Below, one piece after another: positions 22,267 to 42,526 of a DNA stretch of 64,000 nucleotides (positions are counted from its first letter, which is position 1; every line of letters starts with the position of its first letter). The stretch comes from a phage. The stretch is from sequence record OZ413487.1; one strand, given 5' to 3'. Below the pieces are notes generated by a model that ran no database searches, was not told the DNA's origin, and saw nothing but the letters and a program-made list of their open reading frames with translations. Both the position numbers and the translations under genes were made by a program.

Positions 22267-22278
22267 TGGCCCCTGTCA

Positions 22279-23322
22279 TTATTTAACGTGTTTGAAAATA
22301 CCTGCCAACTCGGTCATTGTCATGCGGGTGGTCTTCATAAGATCTGTCATAGCTTTCTCCATAATTGGAGATACTACCATAAAGTTTCCTTTAGTGAAAC
22401 CTTTATTCCAGTCGGTCACCAACAGTGGTTTAAGTCCAGCTCTGAGACGTTCACCAGTTAAAGCACAGCATTTGCGAATATACGAACTCTTAAATTGGCT
22501 GAACGACAGATCAACTTTCATACCTGCATCGTAGAACGTTTGACAATAGAAAGTGTAAGCCTTAGCAATCTCAACATCATCAGGCAGTGCAGGAACCTCT
22601 TCTGCAATCCCCTCTTCGACCTCCTGAGGCTCTTTTTCCTCTTCAGAGTTCTGTTCTTCAACTTCTTCTGTCACAGTCTCGTTCACGATGTCTGAAATGT
22701 GTTTGTTGGCTGCACGATCAGCCATGAAATTTTTAAAGTCCTGCATTGGTGACATATCTTCTTCCTCTTCGTCAAATAGTGCTAGTTTATCTTCTTCTGT
22801 CCCGTATTGCAAGATGAAATCTTCAAAAGTATAATAACCTTTCAATTTCTCCATACGCTCTTCGCTCAGGTGGAGCATCATCTGCTGGACAATTTTTCGA
22901 TCAGTTTTGTCTTTAATCAGGATTGCAGTCTTTTTATCTACCAGACAGTCTTTCAGAGCATTGCACCTCAACCCTACCACACAACAATTGTCAATTGCGT
23001 AAGGACCTTCATCATCTATACGCTCCAAAGATGGGTAGAAAGGATTCCCCAGCCCGTTTTCATCTGTGTGCATGTCAAAAGGTATAAGGGTATAGTCGCA
23101 TACTCCATCTCCTAAAAGTTTTTTACCAAATAGGAGGTATTCTTCCCATGACAGGTCGAACTCTATATCTCGTTTCCGTGCGTTATTCTGTTTGCGTCTA
23201 TATTTTTTGAGCAAGCGCTCTAACTCTTCTGGTGTATAATATTTTTCAAGATTCATGAGTCGTCTCTCGTGCTCTGTAAGTGAAGAAATCGTATCAATTG
23301 TCTCAACAGATGTCAACATCAA
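22279..23322 (-). CDS. HNH-like domain protein with acidic linker (degenerate endonuclease or regulator)
   Basis: Segment GVCDYTLIPFD ... SLERIDDEGPYAIDNCCVVGLRCNALK resembles an HNH core with the usual His replaced, followed by a strongly acidic central linker. Weak assignment. Confidence 0.35.
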   Translation of the reverse strand: MMLTSVETIDTISSLTEHERRLMNLEKYYTPEELERLLKKYRRKQNNARKRDIEFDLSWEEYLLFGKKLLGDGVCDYTLIPFDMHTDENGLGNPFYPSLERIDDEGPYAIDNCCVVGLRCNALKDCLVDKKTAILIKDKTDRKIVQQMMLHLSEERMEKLKGYYTFEDFILQYGTEEDKLALFDEEEEDMSPMQDFKNFMADRAANKHISDIVNETVTEEVEEQNSEEEKEPQEVEEGIAEEVPALPDDVEIAKAYTFYCQTFYDAGMKVDLSFSQFKSSYIRKCCALTGERLRAGLKPLLVTDWNKGFTKGNFMVVSPIMEKAMTDLMKTTRMTMTELAGIFKHVK

Positions 23323-23329
23323 AAACGTG

Positions 23330-23358
23330 TTGACTTTACTCTAACTCTACAATATAGT
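23330..23358 (+). promoter_or_regulatory. sigma70-type promoter (TTGACT-N17-TATAGT)
   Basis: Lies in the divergent intergenic region, upstream of the 23399 gene, with RBS AGGAG. Confidence 0.6.
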
Positions 23359-23398
23359 GCACCCATTCGAAAGAAAACTAACATAGGAGCACTTACTT

Positions 23399-24298
23399 AT
23401 GGCAAATCTTAACAGTTTTAGTACGCGGTGGAAACAGGACATAACAACCAATCTTTCAGCTGGGGACATCCTTTCTGCAATTTACGAGGCTTTAGATGAT
23501 AAAGCTACTTCAAAAGCGGTTTGTACCAACCCGCTAATTCCTGTAGTGATGAAGGTTATTGAGCGTAGATTGGTATCTGGGTCTGATAAGTGGACATATT
23601 TAGATAATGAAGGACACACCTATTCCAATGGGTACGTCGATATAAAAGTAGAATACGCGGTATCATACCGCCGGAGCGGTTCTGTAACTTTCAACTTCTC
23701 TGGAGGTTTTCGATCTCTGGCTACCTCACCTTTTGTTTCCTCAGAGGAGAAGTATGAGCTGCCATTTCTTTGGATGATGGCTAACGCGACAGGAAAAACC
23801 CCCGTTAGCATCCGAGTAAAATACAACTACAACGGATCTAGTAAGATCTATGCCGAAAGTGTCTCAGCAAGTTTTTATTTTGTGATGGGGGATGGAATCC
23901 TCAAACATATAAAGATGTGCGATATGCATGATGTTATAAATGAAGTGACTGATAAGAATGTTCTAGTGAAAGACCTCAACAATTTTTATACACCCGGAGA
24001 CTATTACGTCAGCCGTCCACTGTGCATCTTTAATGCCGCACACCCTCTAGGTGAGTATTTGATCGCCAATAGCGATATTGCCAATAACCGCTTCGAGGTA
24101 GCAAGAGTTCAGAATGAGGTATTGACATCTTGCAAGAGCGGTGATAAGTTTACCGAAGAAGAGATGGGTGTTTTAGAAATGATGGGATATAAGTGTAGCC
24201 TTTGGGTAGATGAGGTGTTTAATGATTGCATCTATGGACAGGATATTTACCCATTAAAGAAGTATACTGATACAAGTTTAATTTATGCAAGGGTTTGA
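23399..24298 (+). CDS. hypothetical protein (299 aa)
   Basis: ORF with RBS TAGGAGCA; first gene of the plus-strand block. Confidence 0.6.
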   Translation: MANLNSFSTRWKQDITTNLSAGDILSAIYEALDDKATSKAVCTNPLIPVVMKVIERRLVSGSDKWTYLDNEGHTYSNGYVDIKVEYAVSYRRSGSVTFNFSGGFRSLATSPFVSSEEKYELPFLWMMANATGKTPVSIRVKYNYNGSSKIYAESVSASFYFVMGDGILKHIKMCDMHDVINEVTDKNVLVKDLNNFYTPGDYYVSRPLCIFNAAHPLGEYLIANSDIANNRFEVARVQNEVLTSCKSGDKFTEEEMGVLEMMGYKCSLWVDEVFNDCIYGQDIYPLKKYTDTSLIYARV

Positions 24299-24573
24299 CT
24301 ATGATGAAGGCATGTGGTAATGTATATTACGTCGGTGAACATGTTCAGGCAGACAGTGTGTGGAAATCTATTAAGTCCACCACTGACGATGCCTTTCTGA
24401 GTGGACTATGTTTCCCCAATCCGGGAGACATCCTCCCTCATCCTGGAGATTTTGTTGTCAACAAGATGGACGGTTATACCGTGTGCCTGATGGTTGAAAA
24501 AATCTTTTTAGACACTAGACACAATCACCGTCTTGTGTTAAAATTTCAAGAATGTAAAATGACAATTGCCTAA
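24295..24573 (+). CDS. hypothetical protein
   Basis: 92-aa ORF coupled to its neighbours. Confidence 0.5.
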   Translation: MTMMKACGNVYYVGEHVQADSVWKSIKSTTDDAFLSGLCFPNPGDILPHPGDFVVNKMDGYTVCLMVEKIFLDTRHNHRLVLKFQECKMTIA

Positions 24574-24586
24574 GGAGACCTTACCG

Positions 24587-24943
24587 ATGTCTAAAGTTAC
24601 TTATCGTGCAGCTATTTACTGCAATGAACACCCAATCAACAATGATGGTCACTGCCTTTTTAAAGAAAATCAGTTGGGATGTATTGTCCTCCCTGATGAA
24701 GGGAAAGGTTATCTGATTGCATTGACAGGGTTTGAACCTGAAGCTCTGGAAGCCAATCTGGACTACCTGGTAGAAGAGGGTGCTGCAGACCTGGTTGCCA
24801 ATGGCTTCTCCATAAGCCTTGACGAAGTGGAGCGCTTCATGGGCAATTACCGTGTAGTGCGTGAGTTTACTATCGAGGTGGAAACTCCAGAGTGGGGTAG
24901 CCATGAAACTAATGCCGAAGAAAAAGAAGAGGAGGTAGAATAA
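24587..24943 (+). CDS. hypothetical acidic protein
   Basis: ATG at 24587 with RBS AAGGAGA; the track start at 24566 is a TTG inside the RBS region. Confidence 0.55.
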   Translation: MSKVTYRAAIYCNEHPINNDGHCLFKENQLGCIVLPDEGKGYLIALTGFEPEALEANLDYLVEEGAADLVANGFSISLDEVERFMGNYRVVREFTIEVETPEWGSHETNAEEKEEEVE

Positions 24944-25200
24944 TGAAAGTGCAGATCTTGACTAATGCCGAGAAGATGTTTATTGAAGATACACCTTTTG
25001 AAGCTGGTGAGCTCCAGTTCATTTATTTTGTTGACTTAGATAAGGTGTTCCCTGCACTGAATCTTGGTCTGGATGAAGTTCCTCATAAGGTTTTGTGCCA
25101 AGTTGTTCGTGCATTAGCGGCAGATGGGGAGTTCCACACCCTTGAAGATGTCCAGACCTACGGGTATCTTGAACTACAACGAGAAGAAGAGGTGGACTGA
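24943..25200 (+). CDS. hypothetical protein
   Basis: 85-aa ORF with ATGA overlap. Confidence 0.5.
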   Translation: MKVQILTNAEKMFIEDTPFEAGELQFIYFVDLDKVFPALNLGLDEVPHKVLCQVVRALAADGEFHTLEDVQTYGYLELQREEEVD

Positions 25201-25202
25201 TA

Positions 25203-25583
25203 ATGGCCCGGTGGAAGACAACAGTTGACCTTCATGATCAGTGGTTAGGACGCATCACTGAAGACGGGAAGCTAGTGGAGTGGGACAATAAGCATGTTAG
25301 CGAGTTGGCAAGTATTGTGGCTGGCAAGTTACGCTCCAAGTTCCCTGAACAACTGGATCCTGATAGTTCAAAGTTCGATCCTGAGTTGGAGGATGTTGTA
25401 TACTACTTCGACACCGTTGATGACTACGACGCGTGGTTTGCAGCACGGGAGCTTTACCCACAAGGCTCTGCTATGCGTCAGATGGAAGAAGATTATCCTC
25501 CGTGTGAGCAATTCAATAGTGCAATGACTTGCCTCTATGATTGGGCAGATAAGAACCTTGTCTGGATTCGGACTGCATTTTAG
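25203..25583 (+). CDS. hypothetical protein
   Basis: 126-aa ORF. Confidence 0.5.
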   Translation: MARWKTTVDLHDQWLGRITEDGKLVEWDNKHVSELASIVAGKLRSKFPEQLDPDSSKFDPELEDVVYYFDTVDDYDAWFAARELYPQGSAMRQMEEDYPPCEQFNSAMTCLYDWADKNLVWIRTAF

Positions 25584-25627
25584 TGGGCAGGAATGGCGGC
25601 AAGGATGCTGCTTAAGGAGTAGTAGAG

Positions 25628-25897
25628 ATGTTATACCAGCAATATGAACTTCGTGCAGAAAAAGAGTTAAATTTTGACAAAGATATTCACAGATATTATT
25701 ATGGGAAAGTTAGAGGGCAAGCAAGAAAGTGTACTCCAACACTCTTTTATGCCAGCAGACGACTAGCGCCAGAAGAGGCAACAGCAGAAAGGGTTGCGTA
25801 CAACTGGAGAGTCACGTATGATATTGACAGATCCGATGTGATATCTGTTTTGGAAAACTTTGAAAACACTTACACACAAGTAGAGGACTTTTACTAA
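25628..25897 (+). CDS. hypothetical protein
   Basis: 89-aa ORF with RBS AAGGAG. Confidence 0.5.
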   Translation: MLYQQYELRAEKELNFDKDIHRYYYGKVRGQARKCTPTLFYASRRLAPEEATAERVAYNWRVTYDIDRSDVISVLENFENTYTQVEDFY

Positions 25898-27081
25898 TGT
25901 CAAGAAACGTATTCGAAAGTGGTCAAATCACTGTCCGTGAGTTGCCAGCTATTATTCAGTTTGCCCAACGTCATAGCCGATCTGTCCTAATTTTGGGACC
26001 AATGGGTGTGGGTAAAAGTCAGGTGATGAAGCAGATCGCTGATAATATGTTCGGTGAGCGAGATGACAACCTTGTTGACGTGCGACTGTCAGATAAAGAT
26101 CCTGCCGACTTATCTGGGCTACCTATCCCTGTAGAGGCGGATGGAACTACACGTACAGTGTTTGCAATTCCAGAATTTTGGCCTGCGGATCCTGACTGGA
26201 GCGGAATTATCTTTCTGGATGAGCTCACTCATGCAGATAACTACCTGCAAAAGGTTGCAATGCAAATTATGCTTGACCACAAGTGCGGTACCTATGCATT
26301 CCCTAAGGGTTCTGTTTTTGTGGCTGCTGGTAACCGTTCTACAGATGGTGCGGTTCTTTCGGCGCTCGAAGCCCCTCTGGCTAACCGTTTTATCATTGTA
26401 GAGGTTACAAGCAATGCAGAGGTGTTTATTGAGGACTACGCATTCCTTAATGGGGTGCACTCCTCTGTAATTGGATATCTGAAAAGAGTTCCATCAGCTA
26501 TCGATAATTATGAGGCCATGGCTGAGATTAATTGTCCATCTTTTGCCACACCGCGATCTTGGGTTGCTGCATCTGATATCTTGCACGATTTTGACAGCGG
26601 TATTATTTCTGACGCTATGGCCCGTGTTCTTCTGCAAGGTGCTATTGGTCACACTGCAGCGGTAGAGATCTGGACATACCACACCAAGAAACGCAATTTA
26701 CCTGAAATCGGTCGGATTATGGCAGGTGGTTGCAAAGAATACGTAGGTCCTAAGCAGCCAGACATTTTGTGGATTCTTGGATCTGAAGGTTGTATCGCTA
26801 TTCGTAATATGATGGAAAATGCAAGTATCTCAGACGAAGATCTTGTCAGCTGCGTGGCAAACTTCCTCGATTTCCTTTGGGAAAACTTCAAGGACGAGAA
26901 CCGAGATTTTGTATTCTCAGTCTTTATGGCGATGATGAAACCTAATGCCTTAGGAAATGCCTTGCTTATCGGCAAAGGGCGTGACAAGATTGTTGCTCAG
27001 CTGATCAAAGCATACCCAAACCTGATGAAGATTGTAAAAGAGTTTGGTGAAGAGTTTAGCGCCATTTTGGCTAAAGCTTAA
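25897..27081 (+). CDS. MoxR-like AAA+ ATPase (AAA_5 / CobS-like)
   Basis: Walker A (LILGPMGVGKSQ), Walker B (IIFLDELTHAD) and a sensor-1-like AAGN segment, in a 394-aa protein. Confidence 0.65.
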   Translation: MSRNVFESGQITVRELPAIIQFAQRHSRSVLILGPMGVGKSQVMKQIADNMFGERDDNLVDVRLSDKDPADLSGLPIPVEADGTTRTVFAIPEFWPADPDWSGIIFLDELTHADNYLQKVAMQIMLDHKCGTYAFPKGSVFVAAGNRSTDGAVLSALEAPLANRFIIVEVTSNAEVFIEDYAFLNGVHSSVIGYLKRVPSAIDNYEAMAEINCPSFATPRSWVAASDILHDFDSGIISDAMARVLLQGAIGHTAAVEIWTYHTKKRNLPEIGRIMAGGCKEYVGPKQPDILWILGSEGCIAIRNMMENASISDEDLVSCVANFLDFLWENFKDENRDFVFSVFMAMMKPNALGNALLIGKGRDKIVAQLIKAYPNLMKIVKEFGEEFSAILAKA

Positions 27082-27090
27082 GGGGGTTGT

Positions 27091-27471
27091 ATGGCTAAAG
27101 TAGGTAAGCGGGGAAACTGCCTGGTGGTATTGACCGAGGAGCCGGAGAAGGAGTACGAATGCAGCTCCACTTGCGTGATCGATATCCGAGAAAAAGATGT
27201 AGATGAAATCTGGTTTAAAATATTGGACGCTTGCGACAGCAGTGATTATTTCTTCATCTATGTCAACGATAAGGCTGGGTTCTTCCATGACGACGGAGAG
27301 TTGCCGTATGAAATCTATGAACTTGTAGAGGCTTGCCATCGTGGAGATGCGGAGTTGTTTGGCTTACGGCTGAAAAGCGGTAAATTCTTCTATCAAGATG
27401 AGTGCATGAATCTTCATAACTTTGTAGAGGGAACTTGCAACGATGGAGAGATTTTGGCACACTATGATTAA
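27091..27471 (+). CDS. hypothetical acidic protein
   Basis: 126-aa ORF followed by a terminator. Confidence 0.5.
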   Translation: MAKVGKRGNCLVVLTEEPEKEYECSSTCVIDIREKDVDEIWFKILDACDSSDYFFIYVNDKAGFFHDDGELPYEIYELVEACHRGDAELFGLRLKSGKFFYQDECMNLHNFVEGTCNDGEILAHYD

Positions 27472-27479
27472 TTTCTAAG

Positions 27480-27511
27480 ACCTCCCCCGCTTCGGCGGGG
27501 ATTTTCTATTT
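27480..27511 (+). terminator. rho-independent terminator (CCCCGC-UUCG-GCGGGG)
   Basis: Same hairpin core as the terminator at 1125, followed by ATTTTCTATTT. Confidence 0.7.
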
Positions 27512-27520
27512 GGAGTTATT

Positions 27521-28021
27521 GTGAAAATTAAGATCTTTGCTATTATTTTGAGCGCATTTTTATCGCTGCCTGTTGTTGCAGCACCAAAACAAAAAGTATA
27601 CCATACTTGCAAGCCATCAGATACTAAGGAAAACATTCTAGCATGCAATATCTACAGGGAAGCTAGAGGGGATGGCACGATGGGTATGCTGGCATCTGGG
27701 TTTGCCACCCTAAACAGGAAATCTCACCCCAAATACCCAGACACCATAAGAAAGATTGTCTACCAACCTAACCAGTTTTCGTGGACAAACCACGGCAAAA
27801 CTTTTAAGGTGACAGAAAAAGATTCATGGGATCACGCTAAAAGTCTTGCAAAGATGCTTCTAAAGGTCTATAATAACAACCATGTTGCATACATGGCTAT
27901 GGACATAACAGGTGGAGCAACACACTACCATACAACCAAAGTACGACCGAAATGGGCAAAAAAGATGCAGAGGACAGCTCAATTCGGGAGTCATATCTAC
28001 TACAAGGAGCGCAATAAATGA
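27521..28021 (+). CDS. secreted cell-wall hydrolase, SleB / Hydrolase_2-like
   Basis: N-terminal signal-peptide-like segment (MKIKIFAIILSAFLSLPVVAAP) and motifs NIYREARGDG ... VYQPNQFSW matching the spore-cortex-lytic / cell wall hydrolase family pattern. Confidence 0.6.
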   Translation: MKIKIFAIILSAFLSLPVVAAPKQKVYHTCKPSDTKENILACNIYREARGDGTMGMLASGFATLNRKSHPKYPDTIRKIVYQPNQFSWTNHGKTFKVTEKDSWDHAKSLAKMLLKVYNNNHVAYMAMDITGGATHYHTTKVRPKWAKKMQRTAQFGSHIYYKERNK

Positions 28022-28563
28022 TTGTAAACAGTAATGAAACTAAAGCAGTACTAACCGGAAATATGGAGGTCACCAGGGGCTCAATTTCTCTGAACAAAGA
28101 GACTTTTGGGCTAATCATTAAAGGGATTTACGAAGATAAGGTGCTGGCAAGCTGCCGTGAACCAATCTTCAATGCTGTGGACTCTCATGTTGAGTCTGGA
28201 CGGGGTGATGTACCGATCATCATTCACTCCCCTACAGACCTTGAACCATACTTCTTTGTGCAGGACGTTGGATTGGGTATGTCAGAAGAGATGGTCCGCA
28301 ACACTTTCATGAACCTCGGGGAGTCAACCAAGCGCAACAGCAACGCTCTGGTAGGTAATAAAGGTGTAGGTTCAAAGGCCCCGTTCAGCATGGTTGACCC
28401 TGCAGATGTGGTTAGTGTGCCATACCAACACAATAGCGCCAAGTGCCGTGCATGCCGCTATGAGATTGTGGTAGCTCCGGAAGCACGCAAAGATGGAGAC
28501 CCTATTGAATATGTAGTTGATCGTGACGGTAACACTATCGACATTCTTTACGAGGAGGCGTAA
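28018..28563 (+). CDS. small GHKL-fold (histidine-kinase-like ATPase) protein
   Basis: Bergerat-fold boxes in canonical order: N-box EPIFNAVD, G1 DVGLGM, G2 GNKGVGS. Confidence 0.4.
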   Translation: MIVNSNETKAVLTGNMEVTRGSISLNKETFGLIIKGIYEDKVLASCREPIFNAVDSHVESGRGDVPIIIHSPTDLEPYFFVQDVGLGMSEEMVRNTFMNLGESTKRNSNALVGNKGVGSKAPFSMVDPADVVSVPYQHNSAKCRACRYEIVVAPEARKDGDPIEYVVDRDGNTIDILYEEA

Positions 28564-29933
28564 TGGAAAAAGGGCAGTATGATGTAGGCACAGATGCTGC
28601 CCTCGTTGCAATCATGAGCGGTGAGAATGTCTTCGTTTCAGGACCTGCAGGTTGTGGGAAGACGTATCTCATCAACATGATCCAGTCGATGTATGGAGAC
28701 TCTTGCATAACGGTTGCCCCGACAGGGGTAGCCGCTTTAAACGTTAATGGAGCAACAGCACACCGAACCTTCGATCTTGCAGCAGGTGTGAGCATGGAGT
28801 CAGACTGGACCGCAATAAGGGCAAAAACAGCAAAGCCTTTGAAAAGCAAGGCATTTACCATCCTAATTATCGATGAAATCTCTATGATCCGTGCTGATAA
28901 GTTTATAGAGATGGATAGGAAACTCCGCTTCCTTCGAAAAAATGACAAACCTTTCGGAGGCATACAGGTCATATTGTTTGGCGATTTTTACCAGGCACCT
29001 CCTGTTGTCTCTTCTATGGAGAAGGAAGCCTACTTCAACTTCTACCATACGGACCTGTGTTGCTATACCGAATCTTGGAAAGAGCTTGACCTCCACAACA
29101 TAGCCCTAATAGATCAGTTCCGACAGGAGTCTATTCGATTTGCCACAATGCTCAACTGTGTTCGTGAGGGTCGTCGCATAAAAGAGGTTGTAGCAGAACT
29201 TAATGCTCGCTGTTACAAAGGAGGTGTACCAACAGATGCTCTCACAATTTGCGCCACCAACAAACAAGCAGAGGAAGTGAACAGAAGGTTCTATGATGCC
29301 ATCAACGCCCCAGAGAAGGTATACACTGGTGAAATGAAGGGTAAGTTTCCCTCCACCCTGCCAGTTGAGCAGGAGATGAAGTTGAAAATTGGCATGAAAG
29401 TTATGATAACCGCCAACGATGTTGACCCGACGCACAAAGTACCTTATTATGTTAACGGAACACGTGCCACAATTGTTAAATTTAAGAACAAGGCGGTGGT
29501 GGTAGAGCTTGAAGATGGAACACAGGTTGACATAGAGCAGAGGTTGTGGGAGAATAACGAGTATAAGCCATCTCAGAGATACAACATTGCAGAAAGGAAG
29601 ATGGAGAAGTTTATAGAGAGGGTAGTGATTGGGTCATACAGGCAACTTCCTCTGAAATCTGGGTATGCCGTAACATCTCATAAAAGTCAAGGACTTACGC
29701 TAGATTGTTACAACCTGGACCTTGGAAAGAACGGAGCTTTCTCTCCTGGGATGACGTATGTTGCTTTGAGTCGGGTTAAGACAATACAAGGAATAAACTT
29801 GTTGCGTCCACTAAGAGAAGTTGACATTATTGTTGACCCGCGAGTCGTAGAGTTTTACAATACAACATTCCCTGACTTAGACAAAATTGTCAGGAAAGAT
29901 TTTGAAACCAGAGCCGAAGAGGGGGACGTATGA
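28563..29933 (+). CDS. dda: Dda-like SF1 DNA helicase (RecD/Pif1-like)
   Basis: Walker A SGPAGCGKT, Walker B ILIIDEISM, C-terminal SHKSQGLT ... YVALSRVK motifs and a size (456 aa) comparable to T4 Dda. Confidence 0.7.
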   Translation: MEKGQYDVGTDAALVAIMSGENVFVSGPAGCGKTYLINMIQSMYGDSCITVAPTGVAALNVNGATAHRTFDLAAGVSMESDWTAIRAKTAKPLKSKAFTILIIDEISMIRADKFIEMDRKLRFLRKNDKPFGGIQVILFGDFYQAPPVVSSMEKEAYFNFYHTDLCCYTESWKELDLHNIALIDQFRQESIRFATMLNCVREGRRIKEVVAELNARCYKGGVPTDALTICATNKQAEEVNRRFYDAINAPEKVYTGEMKGKFPSTLPVEQEMKLKIGMKVMITANDVDPTHKVPYYVNGTRATIVKFKNKAVVVELEDGTQVDIEQRLWENNEYKPSQRYNIAERKMEKFIERVVIGSYRQLPLKSGYAVTSHKSQGLTLDCYNLDLGKNGAFSPGMTYVALSRVKTIQGINLLRPLREVDIIVDPRVVEFYNTTFPDLDKIVRKDFETRAEEGDV

Positions 29934-30271
29934 GTTTGTGGAGAAATATCGTTAACTACGTGTGCGGCAATCCAACTCCTGAAGAGAAGGATGTTGTGAT
30001 TCACGATTTTACTAAAAGATCTCGTGAAAAAGATCTACTGCTAACAAAGGTGACTGATAAAGATCCTGCAGTAGGGGACTGGGCAGGTTTTGCGTTTACA
30101 TCGGACAAATACACCTTTAACAAAGGTGACTACCTTGTTGTGGATTTTAACGAAGACATTGAGGGTGCTGAACCTTACTATCAAACCCTTATTGTTGCAG
30201 GGTGTGTTGATCTCTCTGCAGGCATGCACAGTTTGATTCTTTTTGAGCTTGACTCTGAAGACCTTGAGTAG
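29930..30271 (+). CDS. hypothetical protein
   Basis: 113-aa ORF with ATGA coupling. Confidence 0.5.
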   Translation: MSLWRNIVNYVCGNPTPEEKDVVIHDFTKRSREKDLLLTKVTDKDPAVGDWAGFAFTSDKYTFNKGDYLVVDFNEDIEGAEPYYQTLIVAGCVDLSAGMHSLILFELDSEDLE

Positions 30272-30331
30272 TAAGATGTGAGTATAAAGGGGAGGCACTC
30301 CTCCCCACAAAAACTAAGGAAGCACTAAACG

Positions 30332-30634
30332 ATGAAACGTTATAAACCATACACTTTTGAAATCGATTTCGAACTTGACGATATGTTTACTGTGGAAGCT
30401 CAGGCAGTAGTTCAGTTGCCAGATCCGGAGTGCCGGGATTCTGATGTTGACTGTTACGGATTTAGACAAATCACCGATGTGCATGTTTACCACAACGGTG
30501 AAGAGGTGGACTTCCACCAACTGCCAAACGATATGCGCCACTCAATTTACAAACGTGCAGCCCGTGAACTAGAGTCCTATCTGGATGCAGCGACGACAGC
30601 AGCTGCATTTGCTGAAGAAGTGGGAGGTTTCTGA
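30332..30634 (+). CDS. hypothetical protein
   Basis: 100-aa ORF with RBS AAGGAAG. Confidence 0.5.
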   Translation: MKRYKPYTFEIDFELDDMFTVEAQAVVQLPDPECRDSDVDCYGFRQITDVHVYHNGEEVDFHQLPNDMRHSIYKRAARELESYLDAATTAAAFAEEVGGF

Positions 30635-31029: not shown

Positions 31030-31041
31030 GGAGAAGAAGGT

Positions 31042-31524: not shown

Positions 31525-31528
31525 CACT

Positions 31529-31558: not shown

Positions 31559-31575
31559 CATTAGGAGACAGCAAA

Positions 31576-34408: not shown

Positions 34409-34466
34409 TGTTTAACAAAGAGTGGGAGGGGTAGTACAACCGCCTCCCCTTTAAGGAGAACTGTAT

Positions 34467-36890
34467 ATGAGCATGTGGTCGTTCGACTTTGAGTCATCCG
34501 GTTTGCTGGAAGACCCAGATCTTTATTATCACTGCGGCCTGTTTAAAGAGCTGAATAAGAACCGTTTTATGCTGTTCCTTCCTCTAAATGACCGCACACA
34601 CTACTCCGAGGAGGATATAGAAAAGGCTAAGAACTTCATTCTGGCAAAGAAAACTCTTTATAAAGATTTTGAAGTTCGCATAGCAGATTTTTCAGAGTTG
34701 GAAGGTTGGCTTACAGGAAATTCTGACTGGTCACCAACAGCTTTGAACTGCCATAACTGCTACAGTTATGACTTTATGCTGATGGAAAGATTATCTGGTA
34801 TTCATTTTGATATGTTCCGTGATCCTAAATGTATGGGGACTATCAACGATCACCAGGTTAACCTGTTTGATACGTTGGCGATGAGCCGAATCTTGTGGCC
34901 TGATCGCCCTTTACCAAAAGGTTGTCCGGACTCTGTATTCAACCCGGTTACTAAGAAAATGCAGCCTGTTGGTCCTCACGGCCTTATGGCATGGGGCTAC
35001 GCCCTTGGTAACCAGAAAGTTCAAATTGATGACTGGCGCGATCTTCCGTTGTGGAAGTATGTGGATCGTGTATTCGAGGACGTTATCATCCAGGAGCTGC
35101 TCTGGAAAGAGCTGGTAGCGGAATCAAAAGGTGTATTCTACGGCAAATCTGACATGCAGAACTTTATGTACGATCCGGCCAAAGAGAAGCCGAAAGGGTT
35201 CAAGAAGATCACCTGGAAGAACGCATTACGTCGAGGCATGCTGCAGCACTTCCTGATGGAGCTGCAGGCCCGTCAGGGTGTATACTTCGACATAGATGGA
35301 GCTATTGCTTTACGTGACCGTTGCGATGCGTGGATGAAAGAAATCGCTGATCGTGTTGAACCACAACTACCTTTAAAAGAGCTGTCAATGTCTCAGCGGC
35401 CCAAGTTCCCTGAAAAGCCGTTTAACCAAGACGGGACAATCTCTAATAATGGTTGGAAATGGTTAAAAGATAAGCTTGGCTATCCTGTAGACATGAGTGC
35501 TTTAGAGTTCAAAGCCCTGCCTAAGCGAGCATTTACCTCTACAGGAGATGTCAGCAAGATGGGGATAAAATGGTGTGAAGAGATGGGCTGCAAAGACCCC
35601 GATAAGATGGCTGATTTCTTGAGAGGCTATATTAAGGGCACCTCCACACCACAACCCTTACCTAAAGAGCTGATGGATCAGGCAATAAGTGATCTGCAGC
35701 AGAAGCGAATGCCTGACTGCAAGATACCTATGAAAATCAGCAATCAGGACGACATCAAGCGATACCTAATCAGTGCTGGTTGGCTCCCAACAATGTGGAG
35801 AACTAAAGATGTAACTAAAGACAGCAAGAAGAAAGCTTTACCTGATGCAGATGTTGATGCACGAGTATATGCATATATGGACGAGCTTTTGGAGTCAGAG
35901 TATTGTGACCTAATTATCAACTTCTGGAACAAAACTGATGCTAAGTTCCAGACAACCGTGCACAAGTTCCGAAGCTTTCCTAACTCCGAAAGGATTAAAA
36001 AGGAAGTATTCGGGAAAATACGTAGAAAAGCCAGGGCACTTATTACTTCTCCGCAACTGAAAGATACGTTTGGACACCTATGCCCAAATCTTGAAAAATT
36101 GAACGGAGAGATGGCTAAAGATATCGTCTTGTGGTTATCATTGCGAAACCGCAGATCGGTCCTTGATCCAATCAAGGAGGATAAGGTTGATACTGGTCTT
36201 CTTAATCACCCACGTTTGAAGATTGACCATAAGCTTCCTGCTAAAAGCTCTGGATTAACAAACACTTCCAGACAGAAACACAGTATTTGTGCAAACATGC
36301 CTAAACCATCTCCTAAAGTAGTTATGGGTAAAGAGATGCGTAGTCTGTGGGGTGTTCCTCCAGGATACTTTGAGATCGGTATTGACGGGTCCAACTTAGA
36401 GCAGCTCATCGGGGCTTGGGGTGCCTTTGAGTTCGACAACGGCTTGTATTATGATGTTGTAAGTAACGGAGACGCACACCAAAACAATGCTGAGGCATAT
36501 ACAAAAGTGGCAGGCAGAGAGGTGTCCCGTAACGACGGTAAACCTATCACGTATGGGGTTATGTACGGGGCACAAAAAGATAAAGTTGCAGATATGCTGG
36601 ACATCTCCCCAGAGTTGGGACAAAGGGTAATCGATGCACTCTGGGATGCCAACCCAGGTCTTAAGGGGCGCAAAGAGGATCTGGAGAAATTCTGGGAAGC
36701 AACAGGTAAGAAGTTTATCTACTCTTTTGATGGTCATGCTATCTGGACCCGATCTAAACACTCTTTACTTAATGCATACCAACAAAATGGCGGTGCATCG
36801 TTGTGTGACTTAGTTGGAATACTCATGCACCACCAGATGGTGAAGCGTGGGTGGTACGATGAAGGTGTTCGTCGTATTATTTATTACCAT
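34467..36890 (+). CDS. family A DNA polymerase (T7 gp5-like), exon 1 (ends at the His codon of the HDE motif)
   Basis: 3'-5' exo motifs (FDFESSGL, YSYDFM), HGLMAWGYALG (compare T7 HALEAWGYRLG), polymerase motif A (GIDGSNLEQL), motif B (RNDGKPITYGVMYG) and QQNGGASLCDL. The reading frame hits a stop two codons after ...IIYYH. Confidence 0.8.
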
Positions 36891-37166
36891 AAATAACATT
36901 GTGGCTTCATAGAGTAATCTATGTCGAATAACCTCTTTAACTGCGGGAAGCCTAAACCTTATGGCAAGGTAATCCGCAACGAAGCGCTCAAAAGAGCGAA
37001 CGCTCAGAGGCCATTCCGAAAGGAAGTAGACCAGCAAGTGCGGTCGAAATGGGAGGATTCCTGTGGTTGCTTATCATAGGAATATGAGATGGTCCGATCC
37101 TACGTGAAAACGTATGGCTATGCACGTAATGGTGCGGGGTAGCTTAACGACCTACCTGAACTATTG
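36891..37166 (+). other. intervening sequence in the DNA polymerase gene; candidate group I self-splicing intron
   Basis: 276 nt with no credible ORF. The 5' exon ends in U (CAU), the insert ends in G (...CUAUUG), and a GUGG near its 5' end can pair with exon CCAU to form P1 with a U-G wobble. Joining the flanks restores IIYYH-DEYQLQV. Confidence 0.6.
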
Positions 37167-37520
37167 GATGAGTACCAACTTCAAGTGCCTGACACACCGA
37201 AGTATAAGACTGTGTACACCTTCGACACAATTGAAGAACTGGAAGCATTTAAGGCAGAGCAGGAAGCCAAACTTCATGTGTTCGACGGTCATAAGTACAA
37301 AAAGGCACGCAAGGATGAGGACGGAAACGAAGTGGTTGACAGAGACGGAAACACGGTGTACGATCCTATCCTGAACGATGACGGAAAGCTTGAACTTATC
37401 TGGAGCCCTGTGGGTGAAATGGTGGTACATTGCTTCTGGCAAGCTTCTAAAATGATGGGAGTCCCGTTCCAGATCACAGGTGAATACTTGTGTGGTCGTA
37501 ATTGGGGTGATTGTCACTAA
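37167..37520 (+). CDS. family A DNA polymerase, exon 2 (C-terminal segment)
   Basis: Begins with DE, completing HDE. Ends ...ITGEYLCGRNWGDCH, like the T7 gp5 C-terminus (...GKMGPNWAICH). No RBS or ATG of its own. Confidence 0.7.
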   Translation, partial: DEYQLQVPDTPKYKTVYTFDTIEELEAFKAEQEAKLHVFDGHKYKKARKDEDGNEVVDRDGNTVYDPILNDDGKLELIWSPVGEMVVHCFWQASKMMGVPFQITGEYLCGRNWGDCH

Positions 37521-37569
37521 TGTAAACTATCAACACATGGAAGTGTTGTTGAGCAAAGAGGAGACTTTT

Positions 37570-37854
37570 ATGGTAGTAGAACCAACAAAAACATTTACAT
37601 CCATGACTATCCCTGTTATTATGCAGGTGGAGTGTGTTCAGGTATCTCAAGTGTGGCCTGGCACCAAAATCCCAACAGGGCCTGATTTCTTTCAGGTTGG
37701 GAAAGTGTACAATGTCTGGAAGGCACCAGATTGTTACCCTTTCATTAAAGATGACCGTGGGATGCTGTGGTACCTTGGAAATGACTTGACACTGCACCTT
37801 GGGAATACTATTATTGCAGTATTCAGACTTAACAAGAAGGAGACCGATCAATGA
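37570..37854 (+). CDS. small protein, paralogue family member (FxxGKxY ... DDxG.W motif)
   Basis: ATG at 37570 after AGAGGAGA. Carries FQVGKVYNVW ... KDDRGMLWYL. Confidence 0.55.
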   Translation: MVVEPTKTFTSMTIPVIMQVECVQVSQVWPGTKIPTGPDFFQVGKVYNVWKAPDCYPFIKDDRGMLWYLGNDLTLHLGNTIIAVFRLNKKETDQ

Positions 37855-38078
37855 CGACTTTGGTTAAAGCTACCTTTGTAGAAGAAAAGATGACAGACCT
37901 GTCATTCTTTAAAGAAGGAAAGACCTACGAGGTTTATTACGATAAAGCTCGTGCAAACAAAATGATTAAAGACGAGGAAGGGGTTGCCTGGTATATCTCT
38001 CACCTGGCAAACGGTGAGTATCATATCTACGGAACCACTTTGCTTGCCAAGTTTGTAGTTGTTGAAGAGGACCTATGA
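37851..38078 (+). CDS. small protein, paralogue family member
   Basis: FKEGKTYEVYY ... KDEEGVAWYI; ATGA coupling. Confidence 0.55.
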   Translation: MTTLVKATFVEEKMTDLSFFKEGKTYEVYYDKARANKMIKDEEGVAWYISHLANGEYHIYGTTLLAKFVVVEEDL

Positions 38079-38269
38079 AAGTAAAGTATCTTGCTGAAGG
38101 TATGAATAGGTATTTTACCCTTGGTGAAGAATATTGGCCCTTTACAAACAACGGCGATGTCTACGTGAAAGATAATTTCGGCACGCCGTGGTTTCTGCAC
38201 TCTAATGGGCTGGGATACTCCATTTACTGCGGTGCAGTGAACAACACAACTCTTGCAGAGTTCGTTTAG
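38075..38269 (+). CDS. small protein, paralogue family member
   Basis: FTLGEEYWPF ... DNFGTPWFL. Confidence 0.5.
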   Translation: MKVKYLAEGMNRYFTLGEEYWPFTNNGDVYVKDNFGTPWFLHSNGLGYSIYCGAVNNTTLAEFV

Positions 38270-38279
38270 AGGAGGTAGG

Positions 38280-38651
38280 ATGTTAGTAAAAGGTACCCAC
38301 ACAGTCAAACAACGTATTGAAGTTGAGATTGATGATTGTGAGCTGAAGCATATTTTACGGTCATGCTCCAACGTTTTGCTCCTTAGTATTCTTCAGGAGC
38401 GAGCGGAGAACGAGTTCTTAAATGCATTGGCAGGCCGTCCCGGTGACTTCTGTGTGCGTAAGCGTGGTGACAACAAGTCGTGGTTGTGGGAGATCGATGC
38501 CGACTGGGATTACCACAAAAATGAGGGTATAGATGAGCCTATTCGTGAACTGACGGACAAAGAGATTCAGATGTACAATGAAGTTTGTCATTGGGCAACA
38601 CGCCAACAAATTTACCTAGACCCTGTGTGGCTGATTGAAAATAGTCGTTGA
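38280..38651 (+). CDS. hypothetical protein
   Basis: ATG at 38280 after GGAGGTAGG. Confidence 0.55.
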   Translation: MLVKGTHTVKQRIEVEIDDCELKHILRSCSNVLLLSILQERAENEFLNALAGRPGDFCVRKRGDNKSWLWEIDADWDYHKNEGIDEPIRELTDKEIQMYNEVCHWATRQQIYLDPVWLIENSR

Positions 38652-38676
38652 CAAGAAGTAAGGCTAGATGTAAGAT
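38648..38676 (+). promoter_or_regulatory. sigma70-type promoter (TTGACA-N17-TAAGAT)
   Basis: Upstream context AATAGTCGTTGACAA recurs at 47229. Confidence 0.5.
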
Positions 38677-38727
38677 ACTCCCCACAAACAGAGTATTGAT
38701 TGTTAAATAATTAAGGAGACCTCTAAG

Positions 38728-38982
38728 ATGAAAATCATGTTGAAACCAGAATGCGTTGCAAACGACCGAGCTTTTAAAGATTGCACACTTGGCGCTACTT
38801 ATGAAGCAGAGTTTTGTGAGAACCCTTTGGTAAAAGCCCTTTTGGAAGAAGGGGCCCCTCTATCACAAGAAGAGCTTGATGAGCTGGAAAACTCAGCACA
38901 GTGCCTTACCTTTAAAGATGATGAAGGAGACTCTGTCTGGTGCACTGTTAATGAAGTAGTTTTTGTAAAACCTGAACATTAA
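38728..38982 (+). CDS. small acidic protein, paralogue family member
   Basis: CTLGATYEAEF ... KDDEGDSVWC; RBS AAGGAGA. Confidence 0.55.
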   Translation: MKIMLKPECVANDRAFKDCTLGATYEAEFCENPLVKALLEEGAPLSQEELDELENSAQCLTFKDDEGDSVWCTVNEVVFVKPEH

Positions 38983-38985
38983 TAC

Positions 38986-39014
38986 TTGACAACAGTGATG
39001 GGGCCTAATATAAT
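38986..39014 (+). promoter_or_regulatory. consensus sigma70 promoter (TTGACA-N17-TATAAT)
   Basis: Perfect -35 and -10 hexamers with a 17-nt spacer. Confidence 0.65.
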
Positions 39015-39045
39015 GGCCCTATCAAAACGAAAGGGGACCACAGCA

Positions 39046-39306
39046 ATGACCAAACAATATCAACGAATTAAAGCCAAGGTTAAGCCAGACTATCTGGAGA
39101 AAGACTCTGCTTTTCGGGACTGCACAGCCGACAAAGTTTACACAGGGGCTGTCCTGTTGAACGATAAACTTGAAGTAGATGTGCTGGGTAAAGAGGCCGT
39201 TATCGAGGATGACAACGGTGACTGGGTTTTCTGCACCACACGAGAGCTAGAAGTCTTAGAATATTTCGGTGAAATCTTCAACTCCTTAGACGACGAGGAA
39301 GCGTGA
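39046..39306 (+). CDS. small acidic protein, paralogue family member
   Basis: Start moved to the ATG at 39046, downstream of the promoter. CTADKVYTGAV ... EDDNGDWVFC. Confidence 0.5.
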   Translation: MTKQYQRIKAKVKPDYLEKDSAFRDCTADKVYTGAVLLNDKLEVDVLGKEAVIEDDNGDWVFCTTRELEVLEYFGEIFNSLDDEEA

Positions 39307-39695
39307 TGAAAAATATTTGGGATATCGATATCTTTGAAGCCTCTAAGCTTGACGGTGCTGATGGAGTGATTATGGTGTCTGATGGCAAGGCAACACTAAC
39401 TTCCGGAGATATCATCTATGCCTTGGACGAGCTGGCGCTTCTGAAATCTACCGGTAACACTTTGGAGGAGCGTCTTCAAGGATTCGCTTTCAAAGAAGGT
39501 ACAAATACAGCCATGATGTGCACCACACGGACAGTTCAGGTTGGTAACGGTGTCTATATGATTATTGCTGTGTGTCCTAAATTCAGCAACGTCAACAAAG
39601 ATGATGCTGACGCGGTCAACGATGTGGTTGTTCTCTTCGTGGGTGACGCTATGGCAGATCTGATGAATGCAGGAGAAGCAGCAAATGAAGACTGA
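39306..39695 (+). CDS. hypothetical protein
   Basis: ATG at 39306 overlapping the upstream stop. Confidence 0.5.
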   Translation: MKNIWDIDIFEASKLDGADGVIMVSDGKATLTSGDIIYALDELALLKSTGNTLEERLQGFAFKEGTNTAMMCTTRTVQVGNGVYMIIAVCPKFSNVNKDDADAVNDVVVLFVGDAMADLMNAGEAANED

Positions 39696-39987
39696 AAACA
39701 TCACCCCAGCAGGGTTCTTAAAAGTATACCGTGAACTGCTATATACTACAGAGGACAGTGTTCTAGAGTATCCAGAATATCTTTTGCTGTATAAGTATCT
39801 GCAGGAGGCTGGTGAAAATCTGCCAGTTAGTGCAGAAGGTGGTCCAAACTGGATATACAGCGCATGGAGAAAGGTTGACATTCTCCCAGACCCAGGTAAA
39901 GATATGGTAGTTTGGCAGCTTATCAACAACATCGGGATTCCAATCTTTGATGAAGCTGTTAAAATCTATTTTGAACTTGACGATTAA
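39667..39987 (+). CDS. hypothetical protein
   Basis: 106-aa ORF; the true start may be the ATG at 39685. Confidence 0.45.
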   Translation: MQEKQQMKTENITPAGFLKVYRELLYTTEDSVLEYPEYLLLYKYLQEAGENLPVSAEGGPNWIYSAWRKVDILPDPGKDMVVWQLINNIGIPIFDEAVKIYFELDD

Positions 39988-40004
39988 TATCAGGAGACCT
40001 TAAG

Positions 40005-40250
40005 ATGACTGAAGCAGTTGCTCGCGCAGGACAGAAAGTACGTTGTGTTGAAGTAGGTTTTGGTGGCAAAGGGTGTCAAAACTTGACTCAAGGTAAGGAA
40101 TACGCTGTTATCTCTGGGGGTGGAGACGAAAGTATTGTGTTCGAGGGCCACATCCTGGATGCTGAAAACTTTGAAATCTTTGACGACGATGGGGACCCGA
40201 TCACCTGCCTGCTGGACGGGAATTGGGGAACTTTCGAAGTGATTGGCTAA
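40005..40250 (+). CDS. small protein, paralogue family member
   Basis: LTQGKEYAVIS ... DDDGDPITC; RBS CAGGAGA. Confidence 0.55.
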   Translation: MTEAVARAGQKVRCVEVGFGGKGCQNLTQGKEYAVISGGGDESIVFEGHILDAENFEIFDDDGDPITCLLDGNWGTFEVIG

Positions 40251-40333
40251 CAAATACCTATTGTAATTTACAGAAGGGGATGCTAAAATAGTGTCTCCTT
40301 CTATGTTGTTCAAATAAAATCGGAGATTCCATA

Positions 40334-40699
40334 ATGGAACAAATGAACGATCAAGCGTCGGTTGCGATGAACGAGCAAGAACAACCTCAAGAATTTTTCT
40401 TAGGGTTAAGTAAAGATCAAGTGTCTCTTCTGCTAGTGCTTTCTTCTTTCATGGGAAGACTTCAGGAGCTTACACAACAGCCAGAGGCTGAACAATTATT
40501 CCAGGCTCTGCGTGAAGAAGAAAAATATCGTCGTTTGGACTATGCCTTAGGTTGGGTAGCTCAACAACGAGATATGCTGATGGCCCTCTCTGGGACCACA
40601 AGTTTTGCAATGGGCCTGTTGGCTCAAGTTCAGGACAAATTAATTCAAGCAGGGTTTGCACACACGGCAAACACTAACGAAGAACAAGGAGATAAATAA
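40334..40699 (+). CDS. hypothetical protein
   Basis: 121-aa ORF with RBS GGAGA. Confidence 0.5.
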   Translation: MEQMNDQASVAMNEQEQPQEFFLGLSKDQVSLLLVLSSFMGRLQELTQQPEAEQLFQALREEEKYRRLDYALGWVAQQRDMLMALSGTTSFAMGLLAQVQDKLIQAGFAHTANTNEEQGDK

Positions 40700-41925
40700 T
40701 GAGCGTTATTCAACAATTCGCTAACCCGATGAATCCGCGTGAAACTGTTTTACTAGCTCACGGCATGATTAAACGTGTCAGCATCAAGCCTATCAAAGGT
40801 GCTGATCCTACAACAGGTATTAAAACCACTGTGTGGCAAGGTAAGAAAATTGAATCCAGCCACACCATCTCTTTACTGATTTCTGAACTGGATTCCTCTG
40901 ATAACCTACTTCAAGGTGGTGAAGAAGTTTGGATCAGTATGGGCGATAAGCTGCTTAAACCAGGTCATCAAGACTCTGTCTCTGTTAAAATTGATGACAA
41001 GTGGGAAACCGTAACGCCAGGATGGATCGTAAATATCCCTTTGAAGGCAAACGAGCATAACGGTAAGACCTACTACAAAGGCTCACTGGCTAAGATGGTT
41101 AAGCTGGGTGCAGGAGAGGCTCCAGCAGCGACTCAGCAGCAAAAACAGCAACAAGGTGCACAATCACAAGGCCAGAAGCAGAAACCTCAGCAGAATGCCA
41201 ATCAGGACGTTTTACGCATCTATGGTGATGTGACTCAGATTGTTGGCAACGTGGTTACTGTTAATGACCACAAGATTGGCGAAGGTGCTATGGTTGTCAC
41301 TGATGAGCAGCTTAAAGACCTGGTGGTAGGTGGTCGTGTTGCAGCCATTGTTGACAAAGACACCGGAAACATTATCAGTGGCTTCAAGGCCTATCCTCCT
41401 AAGGCAGAGAACGGCACTCAAGGCTCTGGTGGCAAGCGTAAATCCTCTTACGACCCTATCGGTGTGGAGACGGGACATAGCATCAATGCGTTGCAGATCA
41501 TCCTGGATCGCGGGTTTAAGGTGGACGACCCACTAGGCGTGGCTAAAACACTGCACGTAGTCACCATTGAGCTTAAGAAAGAGTATGCTCAAGCCACCAA
41601 CCGAACTGAAGATGAAGTAGGTGCCAGTGTCGGCAATGCGGTGTTGAACGCTTGTCGCCGTATTGACAAGAAAACGAAAGTTGATGATTTTGCAGCGGCA
41701 ATTACTGCAGAAGCAAAAGATGTCTTGACTAATCTGGCTGAGCCGTTGTACGATTGGATCAAGAACGGTGCTGGGTCCACTGACCATCAAGAACCTCAAG
41801 CTGCCAAACAGGAAGCAGCTCCACAGCAAAACACTGTAGACGCTCCTCCTGTAAATGACGAGGAAGATGACCCGATGGATCAGAATCCAGCACAGTATGA
41901 GTTCGATGACTCGATCCCTTTCTGA
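40699..41925 (+). CDS. single-stranded DNA-binding protein-like (acidic C-terminal tail)
   Basis: C-terminus ...EFDDSIPF resembles the SSB acidic tail (E. coli SSB ends DDDIPF). Q-rich low-complexity linker. Adjacent to the replication genes. Confidence 0.5.
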   Translation: MSVIQQFANPMNPRETVLLAHGMIKRVSIKPIKGADPTTGIKTTVWQGKKIESSHTISLLISELDSSDNLLQGGEEVWISMGDKLLKPGHQDSVSVKIDDKWETVTPGWIVNIPLKANEHNGKTYYKGSLAKMVKLGAGEAPAATQQQKQQQGAQSQGQKQKPQQNANQDVLRIYGDVTQIVGNVVTVNDHKIGEGAMVVTDEQLKDLVVGGRVAAIVDKDTGNIISGFKAYPPKAENGTQGSGGKRKSSYDPIGVETGHSINALQIILDRGFKVDDPLGVAKTLHVVTIELKKEYAQATNRTEDEVGASVGNAVLNACRRIDKKTKVDDFAAAITAEAKDVLTNLAEPLYDWIKNGAGSTDHQEPQAAKQEAAPQQNTVDAPPVNDEEDDPMDQNPAQYEFDDSIPF

Positions 41926-41933
41926 GGTCAGTT

Positions 41934-42512
41934 ATGAAATGCAAACGTTGTGGAGAGGACAAGGAGGCCTCCGACTTCTACACCAGTAACAAATCAACGT
42001 GCAAAGAGTGTTGCAAGAAGGCCAGCAGGGAGGCTGACCAATTTGCTAAAGACTCTTCAGAAAAAGGTGTAATACGTGTGTTGTACAAGGCTCAAAAGTG
42101 CAACAGCAAGCAAAGAGGTCACCCTCCTCCGACTTACACCAAAAAAGAGTTTAAGGAGTGGCTATACCTTAACGGTTACAAAGAGTTGTATGATCAGTGG
42201 GTAGCCAGCGGATACGACAAAAGGAAAAAGCCTTCTTGTGACAGGATAGATGATTTCAAAGGGTACTCTTTTGATAATATCCGTTTAACGACTTGGGGAG
42301 AAAATAAAGACAAGCAGACAGAGGATATTCTGTTACATAGAAGCACCAGCGGTAGACGGTGCAAAAATGTAAGGAGGTTGGACATGAATGGTAACGTTCT
42401 TAAAGAATGGGTATCTCACAACTCTTGTAGCAGAGAAACCGGAATATATATTGGTTACTACATTCATGAAAAAATTCCAGCTCCAGATGGATACTTATAC
42501 GAATACTTTTAA
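41934..42512 (+). CDS. HNH-family endonuclease-like protein with N-terminal zinc ribbon
   Basis: CKRCG ... CKECC zinc ribbon and a DRIDDFKGYSFDNIRLTTWGEN core resembling HNH_3-type homing endonucleases, with the His position substituted. Confidence 0.4.
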   Translation: MKCKRCGEDKEASDFYTSNKSTCKECCKKASREADQFAKDSSEKGVIRVLYKAQKCNSKQRGHPPPTYTKKEFKEWLYLNGYKELYDQWVASGYDKRKKPSCDRIDDFKGYSFDNIRLTTWGENKDKQTEDILLHRSTSGRRCKNVRRLDMNGNVLKEWVSHNSCSRETGIYIGYYIHEKIPAPDGYLYEYF

Positions 42513-42526
42513 CACATAACTAACAT

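Follow-up and report, generated by a model that had tools for sequence, protein, structure and literature searches.

The stretch of DNA analysed here, 64,000 nucleotides (nt) of sequence record OZ413487.1 (hereafter the window), belongs to an rV5-like coliphage (Vequintavirus). Two of its open reading frames (ORFs) are treated here, ORF1 on the minus strand and ORF2 on the plus strand, and both regions are 95-99% identical to JeffSchatz, nom, rV5 and similar phages. The product of ORF1 carries the motif ERIDD (motif sequence SLERIDDEGPYAIDNCCVVGLRCNALK) and that of ORF2 the motif DRIDD (motif sequence SCDRIDDFKGYSFDNIRLTTWGENKDK), which lies C-terminal to a CxxC...CxxC ribbon; residues are numbered according to the translation of 347 amino acids (aa) for ORF1 and of 192 aa for ORF2. 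An earlier note on this DNA had described the two motifs as HNH-like cores with Arg in place of the usual His, and had proposed either degenerate homing endonucleases re-used as DNA-binding regulators or nucleases with altered catalytic residues. The motifs are indeed confined to these two genes. The strict pattern [DE]R[ILVMF][DNES]x4Yx3Nx8N gave exactly two matches in the six-frame translation of the whole window, one in ORF1 and one in ORF2, compared with a mean of 0.005 matches per shuffle in 200 shuffles. A looser pattern also matched at 45916..45990 (DH...N...N), within a functionally uncharacterized protein of phrog_2531; with 0.23 such matches expected per shuffle, this one was attributed to chance.

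The modules containing the two motifs are related to each other. A profile of 44 domain sequences (A4), ORF1 and T4 Srd included, aligned to a profile of 42 ORF2 relatives (A1) over 90 columns with 97.5% probability and an E value of 5e-12 (hhalign). Both modules share the spacing Asp/Glu-Arg, +7 to Tyr, +4 to Asn, +9 to Asn and +3 to Lys, represented by D103/R104/Y111/N115/N124/K127 in ORF2 and by E100/R101/Y108/N112/N121/K124 in ORF1, and this is also the spacing of D92/R93/Y100/N104/N113/K116 in the restriction enzyme PacI. Moreover PacI is the best solved-structure match of both proteins, by profile and by fold, the beta-beta-alpha-metal fold found being most like that of PacI. It was the only significant match of the domain profile A4 in the Protein Data Bank (PDB) (2.6e-5), while the ORF2 profile A1 matched I-HmuI (8e-5) and PacI (6e-4). 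The narrow ORF1 family profile (A2) alone had no match in the PDB, and the link between ORF1 and PacI appeared only with the broad domain profile built from a search of cluster representatives. The I-HmuI match of the ORF2 profile spans I-HmuI residues 74-171, through its C-terminal domain, and places D103-R104 of ORF2 on D74-H75 and N124 on N96. These three I-HmuI residues are catalytic (PMC12724721), and the Arg is therefore at the usual position of the His, as had been noticed.

Family models give a divided picture. No match was obtained in Pfam at E values up to 10 for either protein, the NCBIfam and PADLOC scans of both returned nothing relevant, HNH included, and the canonical HNH and HNH_3 families (PF01844, PF13392) do not describe the two proteins, which have Arg at the His position; a single one of the 44 domain sequences matched PF01844, at 0.026. 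In PHROGs, ORF1 belongs to phrog_3118 ('HNH endonuclease', 2e-109), with further matches to phrog_1035 (1.2e-10) and phrog_1400 (Srd, 6.5e-9), and ORF2 belongs to phrog_1035 (3e-32). The earlier note would have given up the HNH relationship if profile searches failed to detect it. They do fail in Pfam, NCBIfam and PADLOC, but only superficially, as the HNH-type core of both ORFs is recovered by PHROGs, by the PDB profile search and by the fold search. The PacI-type core is covered by no Pfam model, and such genes can easily be mistaken for degenerate HNH genes.

PacI (PDB 3LDY/3M7K) belongs to 'group 20' of the His-Me finger nucleases of Jablonska et al. 2017. This bacterial restriction enzyme of 142 aa forms homodimers, has two Cys4 zinc sites and lacks any additional DNA-binding domain. 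The secondary papers from which the roles of its residues were taken describe it as an exception that lacks the His and uses a loop tyrosine in its stead, the single metal ion being held by Asp and Asn, with Arg93 and His42 also catalytically relevant (PMC5714182, PMC3384342, PMC4081073, PMC13139853); His42 is named as catalytic in PMC13139853. Both ORF1 and ORF2 have this PacI-type HNH fold. As judged from the alignments, the Arg is a family hallmark and not decay in either family, because Arg, Tyr and Asn are invariant or nearly so across relatives down to 23-31% identity. The proposal of nucleases with altered catalytic residues consequently fits, the constellation (Asp/Glu-Arg, Tyr, Asn, Asn) having already been described for PacI, and the view of the Arg as a mark of degeneration is not supported. 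The active-site geometry of both proteins is putatively that of PacI, with cleavage predicted for ORF2 and uncertain for ORF1. As established for PacI, the Asp or Glu before the Arg, together with the helix Asn, would hold the metal, and the invariant loop Tyr would take over the activation of the nucleophile, while the Arg would take the place of the canonical general-base His as in PacI.

The domains of ORF2 (Table 1) extend this likeness. The N-terminal zinc ribbon that had been recognized from the letters is real, its CxxC...CxxC cysteines being kept in 38-39 of 39 relatives (the rest of the 42 aligned sequences are gapped at these columns), and it aligns weakly to the N-terminal CxxC...CxxC of PacI. 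The core has D103-R104 at the end of strand 1 and Y111 in the loop, followed by N115, N124 and K127. All 42 relatives share P100, S101, D103, R104, Y111 and N124, and H63, the equivalent of PacI His42, is present in 34 of the 42. Unlike PacI, neither ORF1 nor ORF2 has both structural Cys4 zinc sites; the second is absent from ORF2, which has instead an added C-terminal NUMOD-like domain. Pfam assigns I-HmuI_NUMOD-like to 20/42 and NUMOD1 to 13/42 of its relatives, and this joining of a nuclease domain to a modular DNA-binding domain is characteristic of homing endonucleases. I-HmuI likewise consists of a nuclease core and a C-terminal NUMOD-like domain, and phage HNH homing endonucleases of its type, free-standing or intron-borne and with NUMOD domains, are encoded, like ORF2, by small dispensable genes that lie among conserved ones and that only some close relatives possess. 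However, the I-HmuI site is the canonical D74-H75...N96, whereas ORF2 has Arg at the His position, a PacI-type Tyr and no Pfam HNH_3 or HNH match.

ORF2 is a free-standing gene, and the insertion polymorphism that it had been suggested to look for in related phages was found. It is carried by 50 of the 117 Vequintavirus records that match the locus; the others are without a block of 587 base pairs (bp), their locus measuring 1514 bp as against 2101 bp. The junctions were aligned in 12 genomes (the window, five carriers and six non-carriers), from which the divergence values given below also come. The boundaries of the insertion are ambiguous by about 6 nt, with TTYTRA at both ends, and the block sits exactly between the stop codon of an upstream gene of 408 aa and the terminator of that gene. 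Two alleles occur at this one site, A (192 aa, present here and in about 20 records) and B (207 aa, gp208 of rV5, in about 32 records). Presence varies even within one species of the International Committee on Taxonomy of Viruses, FV3 being without ORF2 and SYGMH1 with it. A presence/absence polymorphism at one locus with a precise junction is what characterizes a homing gene. In addition, the differences between carriers and non-carriers are concentrated at the insertion site, another feature of homing genes. The last 30 nt of the 408-aa gene are 33% divergent between allele A and empty-site genomes and 20% between allele B and empty-site genomes, against a background of 4.6-5.5% over the 693 nt before them and of 3.7-4.2% on the downstream side. 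Such a divergent flank would be seen if the target in carriers had changed and could no longer be cut, and the 30 nt may represent the homing target or an immunity site. The empty-site sequence in JeffSchatz is CAGTACGCCTTTGATGATGACATCCCATTCTAACATATAG, and we infer that ORF2 would cleave near ...TACGCCTTTGATGATGACATCCCATTCTAA... at the empty locus.

The ratio of nonsynonymous to synonymous substitution rates between the ORF2 alleles is 0.08-0.14 over 162 codons, and the protein is therefore maintained by purifying selection. All this indicates that ORF2 is an ordinary mobile free-standing homing-endonuclease gene with predicted cleavage activity. PacI-like free-standing HNH genes of variable presence, detected with HHpred and read as homing endonucleases, are known from lactococcal Skunavirus phages (PMC12724721), so that the type of gene represented by ORF2 is already known. 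The Skunavirus genes belong to other phages and hosts and are inserted in the morphogenesis module, and they are likened to ORF2 here by their description and not by their sequence. ORF2 would be co-transcribed with the upstream 408-aa gene, and its product would cut relatives that are without ORF2 near the 3' end of that gene, by means of a metal that Asp103 and Asn124 hold, together with Tyr111, Arg104 and His63. Repair would then copy the 587-bp gene into the cut relative, while carriers would escape cutting through the substitutions clustered in the final 30 nt of their flanking gene.

Table 1. Positions in the window of ORF1, ORF2 and the features associated with them
Feature	Position	Strand	Basis or remark
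ORF1, rV5 gp11 orthologue, T4 Srd-like core gene, 347 aa from TTG	22279..23322	-	
Degenerate second copy of the module at the C-terminus of ORF1, residues 245-347	22282..22590	-	hhalign
Acidic linker of ORF1, residues 185-244, poorly conserved, predicted disordered	22591..22770	-	predicted local distance difference test score (pLDDT) <50
Intact PacI-type module at the N-terminus of ORF1, residues 25-135	22918..23250	-	C75, E100-R101, Y108, N112, N121, K124
ORF1 motif itself	22960..23025	-	
Sigma-70-like promoter match, TTGACA-17 nt-TACGAT with TG extension, upstream of ATG 23256	23288..23316	-	consensus match only
Divergence hot spot, last 30 nt of the upstream 408-aa gene	41893..41922	+	adjoins insertion point
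587-bp insertion relative to empty-site phages	41920..42506	+	alignment with six empty-site genomes
Ribosome-binding site of ORF2, GAGG, overlapping the stop codon of the upstream gene	41924..41927	+	
ORF2, predicted free-standing PacI-type HNH homing-endonuclease gene (allele A), 192 aa	41934..42512	+	
N-terminal zinc ribbon of ORF2 (C3, C6, C23, C26)	41934..42023	+	conserved cysteines
H63 of ORF2, in helix upstream of the core, corresponding to PacI His42	42120..42122	+	
PacI-type beta-beta-alpha-metal core of ORF2, residues 98-134	42225..42335	+	invariance, PacI spacing
C-terminal NUMOD-like DNA-binding domain of ORF2, residues 143-192	42360..42509	+	
Intrinsic terminator, directly after the upstream gene in empty-site genomes and after ORF2 here	42528..42549	+	

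ORF1 is a gene of another kind. It is found in about 117-118 of 120 relatives and also across the Vequintavirinae of Salmonella, Klebsiella, Cronobacter and Erwinia, and since it is present in about 117 of the 120 it fails the presence/absence test and is not a homing endonuclease. Of the earlier idea of two degenerate homing endonucleases, the homing can thus be retained for ORF2, but not for ORF1, which is a homologue of Srd, and degeneration for neither. The true start of ORF1 is more likely the ATG at 23319 (346 aa) or the ATG at 23256 (Met23, 325 aa) than the TTG: its homologues start at the adjacent ATG or at Met23, the more distant ones near Met23. Of the two, ATG 23256, which has GAGAG 7 nt upstream of it, is the probable start. 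The promoter-like match lies inside the longer ORF1 frame, in a divergent control region, and the number of such sites does not exceed that in shuffles.

The protein product of ORF1 comprises one intact and one catalytically degenerate copy of one module, joined by helices and an acidic linker that is gap-rich and variable in length in the alignment of Vequintavirinae gp11 proteins (A2). In the N-terminal module E100, R101, Y108, N112, N121 and K124 are invariant in this alignment. An exhaustive HMMER search with residues 25-135 gave 376 cluster representatives at E <= 0.001, and residues were counted in 164 aligned domains from the best 150 of these. Tyr is present in 164/164, the equivalent of Asn112 in 163/164, that of Asn121 in 141/146 and Asp/Glu in 160/164; Arg occupies its position in 157/164 and is otherwise replaced by Lys or Gln, never by His. 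Of the 164 domains, 162 have the cysteine of C-x-Y-T-G (Cys75 in ORF1), its PacI Cys4 partners being gone. The truly degenerate copy, which the earlier note overlooked, is the C-terminal module of ORF1 (Tyr to Phe, Arg to Val, Glu to Leu). Residues 245-347 align to the domain profile with 96% probability (E 4e-9, hhalign), and residues 30-80 of T4 Srd can also be aligned to them (E 8e-4). In this copy E100 corresponds to L301, R101 to V302, Y108 to F309, N121 to E322 and K124 to M325, only N112 being retained, as N313, and the replacement residues are themselves invariant in the subfamily. The intact module would bind or cleave nucleic acid, and the degenerate one might serve as a binding or scaffold unit.

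The relationship of this gene to Srd of phage T4 was proposed for rV5 gp11 on PSI-BLAST evidence (PMC3606486), and it is found in both directions here. BLASTP aligned ORF1 residues 30-165 to T4 Srd (1e-6). In turn T4 Srd matched phrog_3118, the family of ORF1, at 1.5e-16 and the PHROG of ORF2 at 9e-8, and a Foldseek search of viral models with ORF1 recovered T4-like Srd proteins. ORF1 is accordingly a member of the T4 Srd family by homology. Fifteen T4-type Srd proteins, down to 31% identity, have C44, E63, R64, Y71, N75, N84 and R87 in common, and T4 Srd and ORF1 both keep the Cys, Glu-Arg, Tyr, Asn and Asn. Their C-terminal halves, however, cannot be aligned, and ORF1 has in addition the acidic linker and the second, degenerate module. 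T4 Srh (68 aa) lacks the motif and is not a relative; what phrog_4592, in spite of its name 'decoy of host sigma70', matches is the Srd-type module and not Srh.

From its sequence relationships ORF1 is a conserved, non-mobile core protein of the rV5 gp11/T4 Srd type. To our knowledge T4 Srd is the only phage activator of RNase E. According to papers that cite the work on it (Qi et al. 2015), T4 Srd attaches to the catalytic, N-terminal half of RNase E, stimulates the enzyme and accelerates the decay of host mRNA; this stimulation is established for T4 Srd only, not for ORF1. By homology ORF1 would most likely act on host RNA turnover via RNase E, probably early and probably for host takeover like Srd. 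The apparently intact PacI-type site that T4 Srd and its relatives retain bears on how Srd stimulates RNase E, and this is the only point of wider reach. It is possible, if doubtful, that a PacI-type His-Me nuclease module, dependent on tyrosine and with an invariant Glu-Arg, Tyr, Asn and Asn, underlies the whole Srd family (T4 Srd, rV5 gp11). Its members would then do more than bind RNase E, and would need this site to cut nucleic acid or to hold the RNA substrate and in this way accelerate host mRNA decay. Our search of the accessible literature found no paper linking Srd with an HNH or PacI fold, and some database labels ('HNH endonuclease', 'type II restriction endonuclease') hint at such a link. 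A PacI-type nuclease-like core in Srd homologues seems not to have been discussed before, although it is only a mildly new point.

On the whole we consider it probable that a nuclease module of the His-Me finger class (HNH, beta-beta-alpha-metal), in its PacI-type variant, is present in both ORFs, within a homing gene in ORF2 and within an Srd-type protein in ORF1. Several observations weigh against this. Homing that took place in the past and is no longer current, or recombination, would also produce the presence/absence pattern and the divergent flank of ORF2. AlexBoehm is without ORF2 and yet has a carrier-type flank (YDFCDDIP, as with allele B), which points to a gene that was lost precisely or to an empty site resistant to cleavage. 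The ORF1-type domains have no equivalent of PacI His42 (the aligned column has Ile53 in ORF1 and Ile, Leu or Val in its relatives) and a single Cys of the PacI zinc sites, so that catalysis by them is uncertain. Finally, ORF1 and T4 Srd align only over about 130 N-terminal residues with 24% identity, which is a weak basis for ascribing the RNase E function to ORF1 as well.

A rival reading, the first of the two proposed in the earlier note, is that both proteins are HNH relics without catalytic activity, whose only present function is to bind specific DNA sequences or to regulate. In its favour, both lack the canonical His and match no Pfam HNH model, and the C-terminal module of ORF1 is truly degenerate; re-used inactive His-Me folds do exist, for instance in the Smad MH1 domain and in the C-terminal domain of yeast Tcd, and GenBank labels ORF1 as an anti-sigma or anti-termination factor. 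Nevertheless the PacI catalytic residues are (nearly) invariant in both families down to 23-31% identity, which is unexpected for a mere binding surface, and PacI itself, which shares the constellation, is active as a restriction enzyme. Insertion polymorphism together with divergence on the target side, as seen for ORF2, is the signature of a nuclease-driven element, and the anti-sigma label stems from a decoy role that was postulated and never demonstrated, no Pfam sigma-factor match being found. We therefore regard two dead relics as improbable.

The same conservation of the Asp/Glu-Arg, Tyr, Asn and Asn set, which extends over Vequintavirinae gp11, the T4-type Srd proteins and the 164 domains, can be taken further, to ORF1 being an active PacI-type nuclease on host DNA or RNA and not an RNase E accessory, and to the Srd family being tyrosine-dependent host shut-off nucleases. 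PacI as the top fold and profile match would agree with this, as would the promoter-like site in the divergent control region, which is consistent with early expression. But ORF1 has neither an equivalent of PacI His42 nor a zinc site, and T4 Srd, in the account of the citing papers, acts by binding the N-terminal half of RNase E, for which no intrinsic nuclease is needed; such a role of ORF1 is conceivable without being likely. Least credible, and very improbable in our opinion, is that ORF2 is a Holliday-junction resolvase like T4 endonuclease VII that serves replication or recombination. This could be read from the GenBank annotations and the name of phrog_1035, which say 'endonuclease VII', and from the DNA polymerase gene about 5 kb upstream, yet neither the Endonuclease_7 family nor its structure was matched by ORF2.

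As a probable homing gene, ORF2 marks a hot spot of recombination and gene conversion where a conserved gene has its 3' end, some 5 kb away from the gene for DNA polymerase, which is relevant to comparing or engineering rV5-like therapeutic phages. The conserved 408-aa protein (40699..41925, plus strand) belongs to phrog_4477, has no Pfam match and ends in an SSB-type acidic tail (..YEFDDSIPF). In the genomes with allele B the stop codon of its gene is lost and the ORF is 15 codons longer (..DDIPFAPVGLQYGKSRIHAL), which would bury this tail. About 1.2 kb downstream of ORF2 a Macro-domain protein is encoded (43763..44221, plus strand; partial match to Pfam PF01661, 1.8e-6).

In more than 100 Vequintavirus records these two genes bear unsupported labels, namely 'endonuclease VII', 'anti-sigma factor' and 'anti-termination protein'. 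For ORF2, the lack of an Endonuclease_7 match leaves the first of them without foundation. For ORF1 as an anti-sigma factor or sigma decoy, no sigma-factor match was found in Pfam or NCBIfam at E values up to 10, and the name 'anti-sigma' reflects an early postulated decoy hypothesis (PMC3606486). The gene directly downstream of ORF1 (20785..22266, minus strand), which encodes a DUF2201 metallopeptidase and VWA-like protein according to Pfam, is called 'HNH endonuclease' by phrog_1314 and some GenBank records, and one record labels ORF1 'fucosyltransferase'. Labels appear to have slipped between ORF1 and the neighbouring genes. The host given in some records also looks doubtful: sixteen MG0656xx records of 'Campylobacter phage' give C. 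jejuni as the host, yet in their matches to positions 20000-25000 and 39500-44500 of the window they share 90-97% identity with these rV5-like phages of E. coli.

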